From the IMG/VR virus record IMGVR_UViG_3300013126_000019, positions 16,689-80,688 of that record: 64,000 nt of DNA; one strand, written 5' to 3'. This document shows, one piece after another, positions 40,600 to 62,945 of this stretch (the stretch's first letter is position 1; each line of letters opens with the position of its first letter). The notes beneath the pieces were generated by a model. The model was not told where the DNA came from. It saw only the letters and a program-made list of their open reading frames with translations, and did no database searches. Origin of the DNA: a virus. Position numbers and translations under genes: made by a program.

Positions 40600-41814
40600 T
40601 TATCCGCGTTTAAAAAAGTTATCATTTCTGGCAATCTTACGCTGTACTTTTTCTTCTTTCTCCACCACTGGTGTGCTAGAAGTTCTGCGTGCCTCTTCAG
40701 TTTTTAATTGGCGTACAGTTTTTTCTACAGCTTCGGTCTTGCCGGTATCTTTAATTTTGTTTCTATATCCTTCAGGATCTTGCAGTAACCATAAAGCTTC
40801 TGCAATCAAGTCATGTCTGGGTTCAACATATTGGTACTTCTCAAGCAGATGCCCTAATAAATTAGTTGGGCGACCTGACATTGATGGGTAGTTAGGTTGA
40901 ACAAGACCAGAGTATAACATAGCCTGAGTCTTTTTATCTAACTTAACACCATTCAACTCTCCTGGCTGCAATACAGTATATACATTATGCATATACATTT
41001 TAGCAGCCTCTTGTTGCTGGTTCTTAAGTTTTTCTTGTTCCGCAAGTCTTTGAGCTACAACTTGTTCTTGCATTTTGTCCAACTTTGGTTTGAACTTTAA
41101 TGCTTTAGCTTCAAGATCTCCGCGATCTCTCCAGTCCTCAATTTCTTCTTCAATCTCTTCAGATGTTCCAAAATTAGTTGCTCTTAGATACTCACGTACA
41201 ATTTGTTCCTGATCATTAGAACTTTTAGGGTTTAATTCACGTACTTCCTCAACTTGAGAAAGAATTCTAAATAATCCTTTTAAGTCATCACCACCATCTG
41301 CAACATACTTAGCAGCTGCTTGTAATTCCTGAGGTAAAGCTTGAAAAAATTCAATAGGTGTTTGCTCACGAATTTCCTTTTCTCTCTCCATGAAGTTTGC
41401 TTCTAGAAGTTCTTCATAGTCTTTCATAGAATACTCCTCAAGAGGTTTGTCATCATCAAAAGGTACAATTTGCCCTTTTTCAATAAGCTTATTTACAAGC
41501 TCAGCCATACCACTTTTATCAATCTTTTGACGACCAGCAACTTTTGGTTTATCATCATCAGCAGAAGTATCAATAGGATCTACCTCACTAATTACATCAT
41601 CAATAGATGGTGTATTTTCAGGTTTATCATTTTCTGACCCTTCATCATCAGAATTGTCAAGGAAGGAGAAGTCATTAGTTTCCTTAGTAAACATACTAGG
41701 TTTTTTTTCTGCTTCTGGGAGCACAACGTTTTCTGCTCCTGGGGTTCCTAGAATTTCATCTAGGTTTAATTCTACCTGACTAACTTGCGTTACGTCATTT
41801 GTATCAGTACTCAT
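40600..41814 (-). CDS. acidic scaffold-like protein
   Basis: D/E-rich disordered N-terminus and coiled coil; located between portal and MCP. Confidence 0.6.
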   Translation of the reverse strand: MSTDTNDVTQVSQVELNLDEILGTPGAENVVLPEAEKKPSMFTKETNDFSFLDNSDDEGSENDKPENTPSIDDVISEVDPIDTSADDDKPKVAGRQKIDKSGMAELVNKLIEKGQIVPFDDDKPLEEYSMKDYEELLEANFMEREKEIREQTPIEFFQALPQELQAAAKYVADGGDDLKGLFRILSQVEEVRELNPKSSNDQEQIVREYLRATNFGTSEEIEEEIEDWRDRGDLEAKALKFKPKLDKMQEQVVAQRLAEQEKLKNQQQEAAKMYMHNVYTVLQPGELNGVKLDKKTQAMLYSGLVQPNYPSMSGRPTNLLGHLLEKYQYVEPRHDLIAEALWLLQDPEGYRNKIKDTGKTEAVEKTVRQLKTEEARRTSSTPVVEKEEKVQRKIARNDNFFKRG

Positions 41815-51833: not shown

Positions 51834-52088
51834 TTAACTTCCAAGGTTTAACCCTAGATAAGTTAAAAATGCCGTGTTAGGATCTTGTACAAGTAAAGAT
51901 ACAAAGTACTCGAGTTTGCTAGGATCCTGAAAATCCTGAATCATTTGAATATGCTCAGGTAATCCCCTTGGTGGCATTTCTTCGGTACCGGTAAGATCTT
52001 CAGATAAGATAAATACTATTACGTCATTACCTACAAGCACTTGAAGTTGCCAGTCCCCATTTTCTAGTTGTGTATAATTGTAATTCAT
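51834..52088 (-). CDS. hypothetical protein (possible fibre chaperone)
   Basis: 84 aa, TAATG-coupled to the fibre gene. Confidence 0.5.
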   Translation of the reverse strand: MNYNYTQLENGDWQLQVLVGNDVIVFILSEDLTGTEEMPPRGLPEHIQMIQDFQDPSKLEYFVSLLVQDPNTAFLTYLGLNLGS

Positions 52089-53089
52089 TAGCTTAACGAG
52101 AAATTAAATGAAACAGTAGTGATTTGTGCTGATGTAGCACCTCCTACCACGTTAGGATTTTTTGCTATGCAGTACAATCTATCGCCATTTGAAAATGATA
52201 CAGTTGTACCATCATCTGTTGCGTATACTCCTGCAGCACTACCTGCGGCAATAGTAACTTTAGCGCCTAAAACGGATGCCGTTGCATTAGCTACATAAAC
52301 TTGAAGACTATTTGTTGCTGGGTTAGCAGACCTTGTTATTACTCTCATTTTGCTTGCTACTCCAGCAGGCATTGGGTACCCGGGCATAAAAGCAGCTGCC
52401 GCACTACCATAATCACCTGCTGTAACAGCTACGGTAGCTACTGGTGTACCCCCTAAATAAATTGAACCTCTAGCCCCGTTTGTGATACCCGCTCCGTTAG
52501 CATTTCCAACAAAGACAGTAGTATTTGAAGTTTGATAAGTATTTGTATCTAAAGCAAATGTACCCGCAGCAGTCATTTTTACAAAAGGCGTGCCCGATAC
52601 CCAAGCAGGATAGTTAACAGCTGCCCACGTCCCTAGTGTTGGAGTCCCTGTAAGTTTACTATAAGCTAAACTTGTAAGCCAAGAAGGGTCAGCATAACTA
52701 CCTGAACTTAATAAATCTCCAACAGTCCAGGATCTATCTGCTGATAAATCGTAGCTTGTGCCGTTAATATTAAGAGTTCTTGATGTTGGAACATAGCCTG
52801 TTAAAGACGCTGATGTAATGTATCCAGCAGGGTTAGTTAGTGGGTAATATGTACTTGCAGCTGATGCAATAGTTAAATAACTAGATAGTGCTGCAGATGT
52901 AATATACCCTGCAGGGTTGCTAGCGTCATACTTTAAGTTAAGTGCTGTTTGTAAATCTGTTTGCGCAGATAAAGTACCTGTAATAGTACCCCATACAGCA
53001 GCACCAGGAGGAGATGTAGATAAAATATTATAGATCTCCTGGAGACGCTCTAGTGTAAGTAACTCAAATTTATTATTAGTAGCGGACAT
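52088..53089 (-). CDS. fibre protein
   Basis: WGTITGTLSAQTDLQ, duplicated NPAGYITSA and RTLNINGTSYDLSADRSW fibre motifs. Confidence 0.7.
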   Translation of the reverse strand: MSATNNKFELLTLERLQEIYNILSTSPPGAAVWGTITGTLSAQTDLQTALNLKYDASNPAGYITSAALSSYLTIASAASTYYPLTNPAGYITSASLTGYVPTSRTLNINGTSYDLSADRSWTVGDLLSSGSYADPSWLTSLAYSKLTGTPTLGTWAAVNYPAWVSGTPFVKMTAAGTFALDTNTYQTSNTTVFVGNANGAGITNGARGSIYLGGTPVATVAVTAGDYGSAAAAFMPGYPMPAGVASKMRVITRSANPATNSLQVYVANATASVLGAKVTIAAGSAAGVYATDDGTTVSFSNGDRLYCIAKNPNVVGGATSAQITTVSFNFSLS

Positions 53090-57992: not shown

Positions 57993-58641
57993 TAATCAAG
58001 TAGTTAAGAGTGAGTATGTGAGTGTTAAAAACCCACTGCTCACTCTCTAACTATCTGATTACCAGCACAAAAAGTACAAAAAGTTGAACATTATATGGCT
58101 AGCTATGATACGCACTATTAACTTTATTGGTAAACTCTATTCTCACATTGTCTCTATGTATTACTCTCTTAGAGATAGATACTACTATGTTAGATTTCAC
58201 ATAGTCAGGCTCCGGGGCGGAGTTTGCTACGGTTACTTCTCTGTTAGTGATGACCCCGATAATGTCATTGCTCTATAAGTGATACCTTTCACTAGTTTAA
58301 TCCTAGTCTAACTTTCACAGGTAAAACTTGTACTGATATACAGGTAATCCTATACTAGGTAGGTTCTTGGTTCCGTGGGTTAATCACCACGTTAAACAGC
58401 AGGATTATATGATACACTAATGTTTTTTTAAATCAAGTTGGAAAACAGAAGGTGATGCCTATAATCTAATAGGCTATGTGTATTTACCCAAAGGTCAGTC
58501 TATGGGATATTACTGAAGTAATAGTTACACGGATGATTGGTATAAGGACTTGACAAGTCTATCCAAAGGTAGTTTGAAATTACAGGTGTATGTCAAAACA
58601 CCACTAACAAAACAGTTGTATTGTATTACAGTACAACTGTT

Positions 58642-58834
58642 TGTATTAATGCACCATAACTTACTTCACAAGGGTAAGCAGTTGTAACAAACCTTCTTGA
58701 TAAACCTGAATAATTACAGGTCAAGGTAATGCTATGCTTGTCATAGATATACACAACGGACTCTATGAGTCTAAACTAGGTTAGGAAGTGATTCCTTATA
58801 ACCAATGTGTTACAACTGAGTGCAGAGTGGTACA
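58642..58834 (+). ncRNA. twister-ribozyme-like element 1 (type P1 variant with extended P5)
   Basis: P1 TGTAT/GTACA; TAA; P2 TGCAC/GTGCA; P4 CTTACT/GGTAAG; L4 TCACAAG; T1 TCAC:GTGG; GAG; P5 CAGTTGTAACA/TGTTACAACTG. Confidence 0.7.
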
Positions 58835-58888
58835 TAGTGTGCAAGAGACCGATTTTTGATTAAGTTTATCGGTCAGTGTTTAACTTAG

Positions 58889-58928
58889 AAACCGTGGGTG
58901 TTTAGCCGTGCCCACGGTTTTACTTTTT
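58889..58928 (+). terminator. intrinsic terminator-like hairpin
   Basis: AAACCGTGGG...CCCACGGTTT-TACTTTTT. Confidence 0.6.
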
Positions 58929-58977
58929 ACGGTTAGCTATATTGATGAGTAAACAAAAACAACTAATAATAACAACT

Positions 58978-59178
58978 ATGGCAGAAATTAAAGAAATCAC
59001 TATGTGCAAAATAACTCTTATTGAAGACATCAATAAAGTGCACAAGCTTAGTACAGGTACTAACATTAACGTAAATACATTTGATACTCTATATGATATG
59101 AATGTAGAGAGATTAGAGATACATTTGCAAATGGTAGTCTTTAAATACGAACTTATGAAACTTGTTAATGAAATGTAA
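58978..59178 (+). CDS. small protein, paralog of 62956..63192
   Basis: KITLIEDINK.H.L....FD.LYDM..E.LE..LQ is shared; A-rich leader before ATG 58978. Confidence 0.7.
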   Translation: MAEIKEITMCKITLIEDINKVHKLSTGTNINVNTFDTLYDMNVERLEIHLQMVVFKYELMKLVNEM

Positions 59179-59277
59179 CTTAACAACTAATAAGAAATAA
59201 AATACTCCGAGGGTGCAGTAATCGTCAACCACAGTAAATATGTGAGTTTGGGTTACTGTACCTACGAGTATACTATA

Positions 59278-59351
59278 TTGTAAAGTAAAGAATGTTAACT
59301 GCACTATAAACTAAATGGTATGTTACACAAACACATTCTGTATCTTTACAA
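59278..59351 (+). ncRNA. TROVE-associated hairpin RNA, unit A
   Basis: Outer stem TTGTAAAG/CTTTACAA; AGAATGT/ACATTCT-G; CTGCACTATA. Confidence 0.65.
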
Positions 59352-59356
59352 CCTTA

Positions 59357-59443
59357 TATTCTTACTCTTAAAGGAATAGTCTCAGCACTATAACTCTACC
59401 ATCTAAATAGGTTAAACAGTCCCTATTCTGCAGAGTAAGAATA
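59357..59443 (+). ncRNA. TROVE-associated hairpin RNA, unit B
   Basis: Outer stem TATTCTTACTCT/AGAGTAAGAATA; GGAATAG/CTATTCT-G; CAGCACTATA. Confidence 0.65.
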
Positions 59444-59448
59444 CAAAT

Positions 59449-59574
59449 TGTTATAATATTAGCTAGTACAACGGACAAGGCTCAGGGTCAAGGTGATTTA
59501 CCGTCAAGGTAACATTCTACCGTTAAATAGACATGGGTAGCGCGTGGTTGACCAGCTAGCTAATTATTGTAACA
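59449..59574 (+). ncRNA. multi-stem structured RNA between units B and C
   Basis: Closing stems TGTTATAATA/TATTGTAACA and TTAGCTAG/CTAGCTAA; inner GGTCAA/TTGACC and TTACC/GGTAA. Confidence 0.5.
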
Positions 59575-59578
59575 TTAA

Positions 59579-59689
59579 GCACATCAAAGAATGAAACAGC
59601 GCTATATATATAACTATAACGCAAAACCCAGAGATTGGTAGGCCACAGCAGTTAACTGCAAGGCTCTCTCGTCATTCTGTAGTATGTGC
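59579..59689 (+). ncRNA. TROVE-associated hairpin RNA, unit C
   Basis: Outer stem GCACAT/ATGTGC; AGAATGA/TCATTCT-G; CAGCGCTATA. Confidence 0.6.
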
Positions 59690-59756
59690 AAAGCCGGGTA
59701 GTGATACTCGTGGCCTGCCAAACTCAAAATTGTTTAACCTTAAATTCCTTAAAGCA

Positions 59757-61154
59757 ATGGATAACTTTACCAATGCAATGTTTTCTAATGACAGTCTTAC
59801 TAATAACGGTGCTATTACACATAGTACTGCAGGTAATTACTGTCTTGACCTGTTCTTTTTAGCAGGTGCGAGCCGTGAAATGTCTAATGAAGATATCTTA
59901 AAAGCATTTATTAGAGCTTATCATGAAGATAAGTCAATAGCTCTTAAGATTCTATTTTGGGCACGTGATGCACGTGGTGGTGCTGGTGAGAAGAGATTCT
60001 TCCAGGTTATTATGCGATCTTTATTAGCCAATGAACCAGAGGTATATGAGCAGTTAGCTATATATATCCCAACTTTTGGCTATTGGAAGGATATTTTTGT
60101 TATTGAGACACCTACCGAGAACACCCTTAATTGGTTATCTATTCAGTTAGATGAAAACCCTAATGCTAATCTATTAGCTAAGTGGTTCCCAAGAAGAGGA
60201 CCTTGGTTTGTAGCAATGCATAAGTATTTGGGTGTTAGCCCTAAAGCTTTCCGTAATCGCTTAGTTACTATGTCTAATACCGTAGAGCAGAAGATGTGTG
60301 CTAATGAATGGGAAACTATTCAGTATAGCCAGGTACCTTCTGTTGCAGGTAAGACATATAGTAGAGCATTTAACATGCACGATGGTGTAAGATACGCCTC
60401 TTATATCAGTGATGTTATGGAAGGTAAGCAGAAGATGAATGCTTCAGTACTATTTCCTAGTGATCTTGTACATAAAGTATTTGCGGGTGAGTCTGATACA
60501 AGTGCATATGATGCAATGTGGAAGTCTCTACCTAACTTTATGCAAGATTGTACAGAGCGTATATTACCGGTATGTGATGTATCAGGTAGTATGGCAGGTA
60601 CACCTATGGAAGTATCTATAGGACTAGGTATGTATATCTCAGAACGTAACGAGGGTCCTTTTAAGGATTTAGTGTTAACGTTTAGTAATGAACCCGAGTT
60701 TCACATGATAGAGGGTAATACTTTTACTGAAAGAGTAAATAACCTACATCAAGCAAACTGGGCTATGAATACTAATCTTTATTTAACATTTAAAGTATTA
60801 CTGAGACGTGCTGTTGCAGGTAAAGTATTACAAGAAGAGATGCCTACTAAGATCCTGATTATCAGTGATATGGAATTTGATAGGGCTTGTGGTAATCATA
60901 CAAACTTTGATGAAATCAAGGATATGTATGCACAAGCAGGTTATCAAATGCCGGGCTTAGTCTTCTGGAATGTTAACGGTAGACTTGGTAATTCACCAGT
61001 TAAAGCTGATACACCAAACACTGCACTTGTTAGTGGGTTTAGTCCCAGTATCATCAAGTCTGTATTAGGTGGTGATGACTTGAGTCCGGTAGCTGTGATG
61101 CTGAAGACTATTAATACAGAAAGATATGAATGCATTAAAGTAGATTCTCTATGA
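59757..61154 (+). CDS. Ro60/TROVE-like RNA-binding protein with VWA (MIDAS) domain, DUF2828-type
   Basis: T.NGA..H.T, LDLFF, RDARGGAGE, GYWKD, AKWFPR, MIDAS DVSGSM, SDMEFD, FWNV and VSGFS motifs; ATG at 59757. Confidence 0.85.
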   Translation: MDNFTNAMFSNDSLTNNGAITHSTAGNYCLDLFFLAGASREMSNEDILKAFIRAYHEDKSIALKILFWARDARGGAGEKRFFQVIMRSLLANEPEVYEQLAIYIPTFGYWKDIFVIETPTENTLNWLSIQLDENPNANLLAKWFPRRGPWFVAMHKYLGVSPKAFRNRLVTMSNTVEQKMCANEWETIQYSQVPSVAGKTYSRAFNMHDGVRYASYISDVMEGKQKMNASVLFPSDLVHKVFAGESDTSAYDAMWKSLPNFMQDCTERILPVCDVSGSMAGTPMEVSIGLGMYISERNEGPFKDLVLTFSNEPEFHMIEGNTFTERVNNLHQANWAMNTNLYLTFKVLLRRAVAGKVLQEEMPTKILIISDMEFDRACGNHTNFDEIKDMYAQAGYQMPGLVFWNVNGRLGNSPVKADTPNTALVSGFSPSIIKSVLGGDDLSPVAVMLKTINTERYECIKVDSL

Positions 61155-61423
61155 AAGCATTATTTATAATTCTGTATTATGTTATAGGACTTACGGCAGT
61201 TACAATAATTGCAGTAGGTTGTGATCATAAACAACCTGAAGCTGCAACTAAGTACCCTTATCTTATTAGAGATGGTAGAGATTATGGTACTATGATATAC
61301 TGCGATAAAGCTACATCATTAAGCGCTAGCAGAGTACAATACATTAGGGGTAGTGATACCCTTATTGTTGAGTCTGATAGGTACCTGTACATCCAAACTA
61401 ACTCATACTATATCCCTAAATAG
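61151..61423 (+). CDS. lipoprotein
   Basis: MK, hydrophobic stretch, then IAVG-C lipobox; ATGA-coupled to the TROVE gene. Confidence 0.7.
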   Translation: MKALFIILYYVIGLTAVTIIAVGCDHKQPEAATKYPYLIRDGRDYGTMIYCDKATSLSASRVQYIRGSDTLIVESDRYLYIQTNSYYIPK

Positions 61424-61450
61424 GTTAATATAATATGAATTTATAATCTT

Positions 61451-61484
61451 AAATAGAGTGTATCAATGACATACACTCTATTTT
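61451..61484 (+). terminator. terminator-like hairpin
   Basis: AAATAGAGTGTAT...ATACACTCTATTTT. Confidence 0.5.
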
Positions 61485-61564
61485 CCTATACTCTATGTTA
61501 CCGGGAAATCGGTTAAGGGACAACGGTCCCGGGTTAAGAATTAGTCACTACTCGGTGACATAGA

Positions 61565-61810
61565 GTTACTAATGTGCCACAACCCTAGTGTATGAAGACT
61601 TCTTAGTGACAGCCATTAAACCATTAAGATGTGAAACCACAATAATTAACTTGAGCTAACCATAAAGACAGGGCTATGCGTGACTCAGTTCACCCTGTTA
61701 GTTAATCATTTTCCCAAGTTAGGGCAGTTGTAGCAGTACGTGAAAGCACGTAAATTATGGACGCTGTAGCCCAGCAAACCAGCTACTACAACTGAGCACA
61801 GAGGGGTAAC
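61565..61810 (+). ncRNA. twister-ribozyme-like element 2 (with an insertion of about 120 nt in L4)
   Basis: P1 GTTAC/GTAAC; TAA; P2 TGTGC/GCACA; P4 CCCTAG/TTAGGG; TCCCAAG; T1 TCCC:GGGG; P5 CAGTTGTAG/CTACAACTG. Confidence 0.6.
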
Positions 61811-61914
61811 AAGCATAGCATAAGTGCTGATGAAACGATGCAAGTATGGGATACTTACTATCTCACATGTAGACTGAAAGGTCTACTCTTTAAGTAATCT
61901 AATCACACAACATC

Positions 61915-62145
61915 ATGGCTCCAGAAGAAAAGGGAAAAGAAATTCAAGCGGAGATTACAAGGATAATCAGAGAAAGAGGTACGCTAAGTAGAAAGCTACA
62001 AGCAGATGGACATCCTAACCCAAAAAATGAAGCTAGTAGGCTAATCAATCTCAAGTATGGAAAAGGTTGGAAAGAAAAGCTAGAACTGCAAGATCCCACT
62101 AGAGAGTATGGGAAAAATCTGTTAAAAGTGTCTTATTACTATTAA
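61915..62145 (+). CDS. hypothetical protein
   Basis: 76 aa; TAATCACACAA leader shared with the next gene. Confidence 0.65.
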   Translation: MAPEEKGKEIQAEITRIIRERGTLSRKLQADGHPNPKNEASRLINLKYGKGWKEKLELQDPTREYGKNLLKVSYYY

Positions 62146-62158
62146 TCACACAAAACTT

Positions 62159-62434
62159 ATGAGAAGCAATAAAGAACTATTAGAGCTGATGTTAAAGAAT
62201 CAGCATCATTTTACAAAAGTATCAGGTTTATGTCACTGGGTAAATCTTGTTTGTGCTCATAAAGTTATTACTGAAGATGAAGCAGATTCTCTTATGTCAT
62301 TAATTCATTGGAATCGCCCACGGAAGAAGTGGAGCAGCATTAGTGCTTACAGTAACGCAGGCTTCTACTGGGAGCCAGGTAAAATCAAGCCACGTATTAA
62401 GTGGATCAAAAAGCAAATCAAACTAAATTCTTAA
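62159..62434 (+). CDS. hypothetical protein
   Basis: 91 aa; GLC...FYW...RIKW pattern seen in small phage proteins. Confidence 0.65.
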   Translation: MRSNKELLELMLKNQHHFTKVSGLCHWVNLVCAHKVITEDEADSLMSLIHWNRPRKKWSSISAYSNAGFYWEPGKIKPRIKWIKKQIKLNS

Positions 62435-62438
62435 TCAA

Positions 62439-62945
62439 ATGGCAAAATCAATACCTGCTACTAAAATGGTAGCTAAAAAGCCTGTTGCTAAAACTAAATC
62501 ATCACCTGATTTTTTAGAAAAAGTGACAACAGTTAAAGTTAATTGGAAGAAAGTACCTAATGGAACTTATGTTAGTGTTGGGGTAGGTAGTAAAAGAACT
62601 ATCTCTGGTTTCTTTTATAGAGAAGAACCATCAGCTGATGAGTTTTTTATCTTACATGATAATTACAATAATGCTGGAAATTCTCCTAAATATATGTCAA
62701 CTAGTACTTTCAAGTATGGTTGGGTTATTCTTGATGATGATACTGAACTTCTTGAAGACGTTGAGTTTCCTCCAATATTGTTTGATCGTAAAACAATGAG
62801 ACTTCCTAAAAAACCAACTAATGTTATTAGAATTGGTGATTATGACGCTACTGTTACTAATGCTAGTATCAAAGTAGGGTGTACTACAGTACCCCGCAAG
62901 AAAGTAGAAGCTGTGCTTAAACTCATGCAATCACTTGATAAATAA
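62439..62945 (+). CDS. hypothetical protein
   Basis: 168 aa; C-terminal IGDY.A.V...IKVGC motif. Confidence 0.7.
   Translation: MAKSIPATKMVAKKPVAKTKSSPDFLEKVTTVKVNWKKVPNGTYVSVGVGSKRTISGFFYREEPSADEFFILHDNYNNAGNSPKYMSTSTFKYGWVILDDDTELLEDVEFPPILFDRKTMRLPKKPTNVIRIGDYDATVTNASIKVGCTTVPRKKVEAVLKLMQSLDK

Follow-up and report, generated by a model that had tools for sequence, protein, structure and literature searches.

The DNA analysed here is a 64,000-nucleotide window of an 80.7-kb IMG/VR virus record, and the feature of interest is a 193-base stretch at 58642-58834 on the plus strand, found in DNA from lake-water metagenomes. The flanking genes lie on the same strand, and no tRNAs were found near the element. 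Downstream of it, also on the plus strand, are a hairpin (58846-58876) and an intrinsic-terminator-like hairpin followed by a U-run (58888-58921), the latter identified by a terminator scan with a 14-bp stem containing 6 G-C pairs and then ACUUUUU. The next large gene on this strand, 0.9 kb downstream at 59730-61154, is Ro60/TROVE-like (phrog_850 "RNA-binding protein"; Pfam DUF2828 and DUF7788) and has homologues in 710 GenBank phage records. It lies between the element and a second copy of the same putative ribozyme at 61565-61810 (plus strand). The record, 67% complete, yielded no RtcB ligase, an enzyme that might make use of ribozyme ends.

Sequence and predicted architecture of the element

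Read from the sequence, 58642-58834 shows the elements of a type-P1 twister in complete order, P5 arm included. The 5' half reads UGUAU (5' strand of P1, 58642-58646), U-A-A (L1, 58647-58649), UGCAC (5' strand of P2, 58650-58654), C58655 and an AUAA linker (5' strand of L2, 58655-58659), CUUAC (5' strand of P4, 58660-58664), UUCACAAGG (loop L4, 58665-58673), GUAAG (3' strand of P4, 58674-58678), a linker C58679, and AGUUGUAACA (5' strand of P5, 58680-58689). An insert of 118 nt in P5 (58690-58807) follows, after which the 3' half reads UGUUACAACU (3' strand of P5, 58808-58817), G58818-A58819, GUGCA (3' strand of P2, 58820-58824), G58825-A58826 (L1), and GUGG followed by UACA. Within this last part, GUG (58827-58829) is the 3' strand of pseudoknot T1 and pairs with C58669, A58668, and C58667 of L4, while GUACA (58830-58834) is the 3' strand of P1 and the 3' edge of the unit; G58830 has alternative partners in U58666 or U58646. 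In L4 the T1 strand C58667-A58668-C58669 is followed by A58670 and A58671 and then by G58672 and G58673 on the T2 side, with C58655 as the candidate T2 partner of G58672.

The strands of P1 were placed by the sequence and the alignment to the covariance model described below, those of P4 and the 3' strand of P5 by the sequence and covariation (with the model alignment for both 3' strands), and the 3' strand of P2 by the model alignment and covariation. For the 5' strand of P5 the minimum free energy (MFE) folds agree with the covariation, and the insert was delimited by MFE and RNAalifold. P1, P2, P4, and P5 were all recovered in the MFE fold of 58642-58834 (-56.8 kcal/mol, z = -3.0). The original prediction had listed all type-P1 elements in this order, and the sequence, the family model, and the covariation of P1, P2, and P4 agree with it. 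The predicted scissile bond, U58647/A58648, is placed by analogy with the U-A site of twister (PMC5408937, PMC6154101), and G58825 occupies the position of the conserved catalytic guanine at the base of P2, a role likewise assigned by analogy (PMC6154101, PMC5408937).

The element belongs to a family found in other phages

When IMG/VR was scanned for the 3' motif AACTGAGNNCAGAGNGG, at least 120 loci were found, and a P2 complement preceded by TAA was present upstream in 72 of the 123 matches listed. Among 28 short members, the 5' half, which the search pattern left free, was nearly invariant (UAAUG.ACCA ... UUC.CAAGG ... CAGUU), and the UAA of L1 within it was invariant in the family. From these 28 copies, all of them from other phages and with the window excluded, we built a covariance model, R1. 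This model matched 58639-58838 over its full length (model positions 1-130) with 88.4 bits and an E value of 7e-22; since the window was left out of the model, such a match excludes chance. R1 also detected the 3' part of the second copy (61565-61810), and these two were the only copies in the record.

Neither the intergenic region nor a short family member had a DNA match in GenBank phages, and among 185,579 prokaryote species genomes the family occurred in three MAG contigs only, which are probably phage DNA and give no clue to the host. No description of this twister variant was found in the literature. A P5 arm is universal in the family, and the base of its stem is conserved in sequence (CAGUUGUAA with UUACAACUG), while the P5 inserts range from about 35 to more than 300 nt and are unrelated to one another in sequence. 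The same insert was found in cores with differing P4 and linker sequences in two cases (L053 and L035; L038 and L080).

Four further loci (L093:5983-6106, L073:13073-13241, L023:6532-6652, and L127, minus strand, at about 6591) either keep P2, P5, and GAGGGG but have as P4 a simple hairpin that lacks the CCCAAGG loop, or have lost the 3' catalytic strand; they appear to be derivatives that have decayed or are non-catalytic.

Stems and pseudoknot T1 covary

To the 62 strong R1 matches we applied a pair count, with P1, P2, P4, P5, T1, and one T2 pair as the structure. In these copies 96.0% of cells were paired versus 83.7% in shuffles, changes on both sides occurred in 21 of 27 pairs, and the observed values were reached by 0 of 500 shuffles, although these counts lean towards the structure because the model shaped the alignment and the pattern by which most copies were ascertained fixes the 3' strand. 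Slid controls gave 31-50% paired. By stem, 82% of cells were paired in P1 (3 of 4 pairs covarying), 99% in P4 (all five pairs covarying), and 96% in P5 (8 of 9 pairs covarying). In P2 and T1 every cell was paired (100% each), with compensatory changes in pairs 3, 4, and 5 of P2 and at two positions of T1. Covariation among homologues, on which the original prediction had staked the assignment, is thus present across the 62 strong copies.

Individual changes bear this out at the level of single pairs. The fifth pair of P2 changed from C:G to U:A in three independent copies (L080:617-771 and L010:6563-6786, both detected by the model alone, and L129), in keeping with the 5-bp P2 that had been predicted. 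Among copies found by the model alone, the fourth P2 pair changed from A:U to G:C, and a T1 position other than the middle one was compensated in L080:2532-2607 (CCA with UGG). L4 is invariant across the family save for this T1 covariation. In the window copy it is the middle T1 position that differs, with A:U in place of C:G, and a less biased scan, which fixed the 5' side alone and required a non-C at this middle position, returned seven loci. All six UUCAC copies had GAGUG downstream and were intact (6/6), and the single UUCUC copy had lost its 3' catalytic strand. UCAC:GUGG is therefore a genuine compensated variant of the pseudoknot, as had been proposed from its comparison with UCCC:GGGG in the second copy.

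Twister's catalytic positions are invariant and pseudoknot T2 is non-canonical

Neither A58648, located 3' of the predicted scissile bond, nor G58825, at the base of P2, varies within the family, and this extends to copies that lie outside the search pattern. The GA that follows the 3' strand of P2 likewise persists in copies that were detected by the model without this pattern, and the L4 motif U-CNC-AAG is invariant in the family.

Pseudoknot T2, described as the most critical tertiary contact of twister, joins the conserved GC dinucleotide of L2 to a pair of bulged nucleotides on the 3' side of L4 (PMC5408937), and a later descriptor gives "NC" as its 5' strand (PMC11662667). In all short-type copies L2 reads CC-A and L4 reads AAGG, and the canonical GC dinucleotide of L2 is absent. 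C58655 (C20) and G58672 (G37) had zero variants in IMG/VR; in the strong model copies this pair position was C:G in 60 and U.G in 1. As both nucleotides are invariant, pairing between them is possible but covariation is impossible. C58654:G58673, the candidate second pair, would be in competition with C58654:G58820, the fifth pair of P2, which covaries. At G58673 (G38) one IMG/VR variant was seen in the short type (L130), and the position varies in the long type, with U in the second copy and A in L023. The original prediction had described T2 as non-canonical with a single C-G pair. The first part holds; for the second, C58655:G58672 is the sole unambiguous candidate pair and from the sequences a single-pair T2 is plausible, with the competing C58654:G58673 as a possible second pair.

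A second copy represents a long subtype

The copy at 61565-61810 is of a long type, with a predicted cut at U61570/A61571. It has P1 GUUAC with GUAAC, P2 UGUGC with GCACA, P4 CCCUA with UAGGG, and T1 CCC with GGG, so that P1, P2, P4, and T1 all differ from those of the element in a compensatory manner. About 124 nt (61588-61711) are inserted between the 5' strand of P4 and the T1 strand, and P5 spans 61726-61793. An nhmmer profile of 11 long-type members matched this copy with an E value of 1e-24, and the compensatory differences together with this match uphold its identification as a relative in which the pairing is kept.

Among the matches listed, the long type is common to eleven other phage contigs. 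Its layout is GUGG - AUAUAAAGACUUCUUA ... UAAGAUGUGAAA - CCAC, then a helix, then CU-CCCAAGG; this second helix shows covariation (UGAUUAA with UUAAUCA and variants). On its 5' side, L4 carries two additional helices together with an asymmetric internal loop, AUAUAAAGAC... / ...GAUGUGAAA, that is strongly conserved. Twisters are reported, from high-throughput data, to tolerate an imperfect first L4 position (PMC11662667).

Catalogued Rfam models do not detect the family

None of the Rfam families matched the window at gathering score. In 58000-62500 at E<=10 there was no twister model among the matches, which were weak and spurious miRNA and sRNA matches only, and RF03160 returned nothing relevant on the whole 80.7-kb record. 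Rfam Twister-sister (RF02681), pistol (RF02679), and hatchet (RF02678) gave no match on the element. The original prediction had looked to the Rfam twister-P1 model, with and without the P5 insert, for confirmation, and this did not come: the model matched neither the element nor natural copies with a short P5. One such copy, L077:3860-4010, had no Rfam match at E<=10, and RF03160 at E<=10 found nothing in five records with short-P5 copies. The misses are thus not due to the insert alone, because natural short-P5 relatives are missed as well. No canonical twisters were found in 32 family loci. The element is a variant outside the catalogued Rfam models and not a canonical twister masked by its insert; we file it as a variant because both the Rfam models and the canonical definition of T2 failed.

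The P5 insert forms four hairpins and is under constraint

MFE and RNAalifold place four hairpins in the insert, all on the plus strand: H1 at 58696-58725, H2 at 58726-58752, H3 at 58758-58772, and H4 at 58779-58803, the last with a GUGA loop at 58788-58791. The insert had been predicted as structured, with three hairpins and a GUGA tetraloop; the structure and the loop stand, and the number of hairpins is revised to four. In IMG/VR, homologues of the insert occur in L128, L090, and L006 only, always inside the same P5. It is conserved at 100% in the complete genome G006, to which L128 corresponds, and at about 88% in L090 and L006. Among L128, L090, and L006, the substitutions in stems are all compensatory and the others are confined to loops or linkers; the loop of H4 is GNRA throughout (GUGA, GUAA, or GCGA). 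We infer that the insert (58690-58807) projects away from the core as a selected, structured "cargo".

Thirteen nucleotides of H2 (58729-58741) are exactly complementary to 61809-61821, which comprises the last two bases of P1 of the second copy and then sequence downstream of it, and a second 13-nt antisense match of the insert lies at 41617. Two such matches compare with about 0.2 expected by chance, and the 13-mer at 58729-58741 is not conserved in L090 and L006. We regard these two matches as too weak to interpret and set antisense targets of the insert aside.

An identical unit occurs in another phage genome

L128:3134-3329, located at G006:9287-9482, is 100% identical to 58639-58834 of the window. 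G006 is a complete 78-kb genome with terminal repeats. When the last 20 kb of the window were compared with the rest of G006, a 1.1-kb block (window 51890-52993, G006:5176-6279) was 94% identical and a 106-nt block was 77% identical; the sequences were otherwise unalignable. The 1.1-kb block amid unalignable sequence indicates, at the level of sequence, that the window phage and G006 are mosaically related. The match stops precisely at the two outer edges of P1, at 58834 on the 3' side. As 100% identity is confined to 58639-58834, with at most 94% or no alignment elsewhere, the predicted ribozyme is an evolutionary unit, and the pattern of identity fits a recent exchange of ribozyme and insert as one module between mosaic phages.

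Just upstream of the element (58612-58640, plus strand) is a hairpin with a perfect 9-bp stem, CAGUUGUA with UACAACUG, that repeats the base of P5 and could therefore compete with P5 during folding. It lies outside the conserved unit and is missing upstream of the identical unit in L128. We considered whether it is a decayed tandem copy and found no support for this, as an unfiltered model search matched the P5-like hairpin only, with 6.7 bits.

Genomic context of the family

In 24 of 56 distinct family contexts an ATG-started ORF of at least 50 aa begins within 50 nt downstream on the same strand, compared with 17% for random positions in the same loci. A typical copy, lying shortly before a gene start, would therefore stay on the mRNA that follows as its structured 5'-OH leader. 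Terminator-like sites no more than 150 nt away were present in only 4 of the 56 contexts, and the window copy is one of these four. In L103, L113, L046, and L097, a homologue of the Ro60/TROVE-like gene at 59730-61154 follows a family copy at a distance of 190-360 nt, and such a gene was also noted in L016.

Twister-sister, pistol, and hatchet are small self-cleaving RNAs of phage-like metagenomic DNA. Two of these classes were found about 0.3-1.2 kb from family copies in phage contigs: an Rfam Hatchet (79 bits, L008:6387-6553) and an Rfam Pistol (42 bits, L083:1434-1498).

A family copy at L048:3230-3427 (minus strand) borders directly on a tRNA gene at its 3' end, and here the putative ribozyme would stay attached to the 5' leader of the tRNA precursor.

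Discussion

The sequence comparisons reported above make it probable that 58642-58834 is a twister-type self-cleaving ribozyme with type-P1 topology, belonging to a large, uncatalogued variant family restricted to phages. By analogy with twister, cleavage is expected at 58647/58648, where an in-line attack by the 2'-OH of U58647 would leave a 2',3'-cyclic phosphate on the upstream product and a 5'-OH on A58648. In such a ribozyme the second pseudoknot would be rewired from the canonical GC:GC to C58655:G58672, perhaps with C58654:G58673 in competition with the fifth P2 pair, and the 118-nt, four-hairpin P5 insert would be a cargo that points away from the core. Because the strong terminator at 58888-58921 follows the element, cleavage would cut from the 3' end of the upstream transcript a separate RNA of about 280 nt with a 5'-OH, consisting of the ribozyme body, the insert, and the terminator hairpins. 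Most relatives would instead stay attached, as a structured 5' leader located 20-50 nt ahead of a gene start. That the window copy ends in a terminator points to a released non-coding RNA rather than to mRNA processing. We tentatively, and with considerable doubt, suggest that the ribozyme is a delivery or processing scaffold and the insert the working part of the 280-nt RNA, perhaps acting with the Ro60/TROVE-like protein and the small-RNA array just downstream, and that ribozyme and cargo are exchanged as one precise cassette.

The same region might instead be a structured non-coding RNA that adopts a twister-like fold and does not cleave, serving as a scaffold that displays the P5 insert or as a protein-binding element, for example for the Ro60/TROVE-like protein. 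The non-canonical T2 and the failure of the Rfam models speak for this idea, as do a P5 base conserved in sequence beyond the needs of pairing, an insert under selection for structure, and the Ro-like gene that is found 190-360 nt downstream in four other loci and 0.9 kb downstream here. We nevertheless consider it unlikely: none of twister's catalytic positions varies, not even the UA site or the G after P2, for which a scaffold would have no use, T1 is kept by compensation, Hatchet and Pistol adjoin family copies, and the copies without L4 or the 3' strand resemble decay products. Short ORFs do overlap the element (58550-58687, plus strand, and 58626-58754, minus strand), and we asked whether it is protein-coding sequence or a chance resemblance. 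This is exceedingly improbable and was ruled out by the R1 match, with an E value of 7e-22 to a model from other phages, and by covariation that is of the pairing type and not of the codon type; the edges of the conserved unit, moreover, match P1 and not the ORFs.

An active twister would also be compatible with a plainer function, namely ordinary operon processing or control of transcript stability as its main role, with the P5 insert as a tolerated passenger. We hold this to be possible, if short of an even chance, given that P5 inserts of about 35 to more than 300 nt across the family are unrelated in sequence and that family copies are typically just ahead of gene starts. Against a passenger stands the conservation of the insert, which reaches 100% in G006 and about 88% in L090 and L006, with changes that are loop or compensatory only and with the GNRA loop kept, and after the window copy there is a terminator, not a gene.

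Twister is among the fastest natural self-cleaving ribozymes, yet little is understood of what it does biologically. With its phage copies, well over a hundred and missed by Rfam, the family widens the twister search space. Its fold tolerates a rewired T2, its P5 is obligatory, with a stem whose sequence is conserved and structured inserts that can be swapped, and one subtype carries a two-helix expansion inside L4. The copies ahead of gene starts, beside pistol or hatchet, and upstream of Ro-like genes offer natural contexts in which to ask about the roles of these putative ribozymes. Within the family the window copy is unusual for the terminator that follows it and for its unchanged recurrence in another phage genome.

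Comparison with known self-cleaving ribozymes

The order of elements and the conserved positions agree with the descriptions of twister in reviews of the class (PMC5408937, PMC6154101) and with large-scale activity data (PMC11662667). Like twister type P1 with its optional P5 (RF03160), the family is arranged as P1, the U-A site, P2, L2, P4, L4, P4', P5, P2', G-A, T1', and P1'. Both have a three-pair T1 that connects L4 to the 3' strand of L1, an L4 motif of U-CCC-A-A-G, a conserved A after the scissile bond and a conserved G at the base of P2, and a P1 that is short and variable. Twister-sister lacks the double-pseudoknot fold (PMC6154101), whereas the T1 of the element is supported.

The family departs from twister in the L2 dinucleotide, which is CC and not the conserved GC, and in the end of L4, which is GG and not GC. 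It further has one extra U in L4 and a covarying fifth P2 pair that uses the first C of the L2 CC. P5 is present in only about 1% of annotated twisters (PMC6154101), whereas in the family it is universal, has a base conserved in sequence, and accommodates inserts of about 35 to more than 300 nt; the long subtype, with two extra helices on the 5' side of L4, is a further feature by which the family differs from twister.
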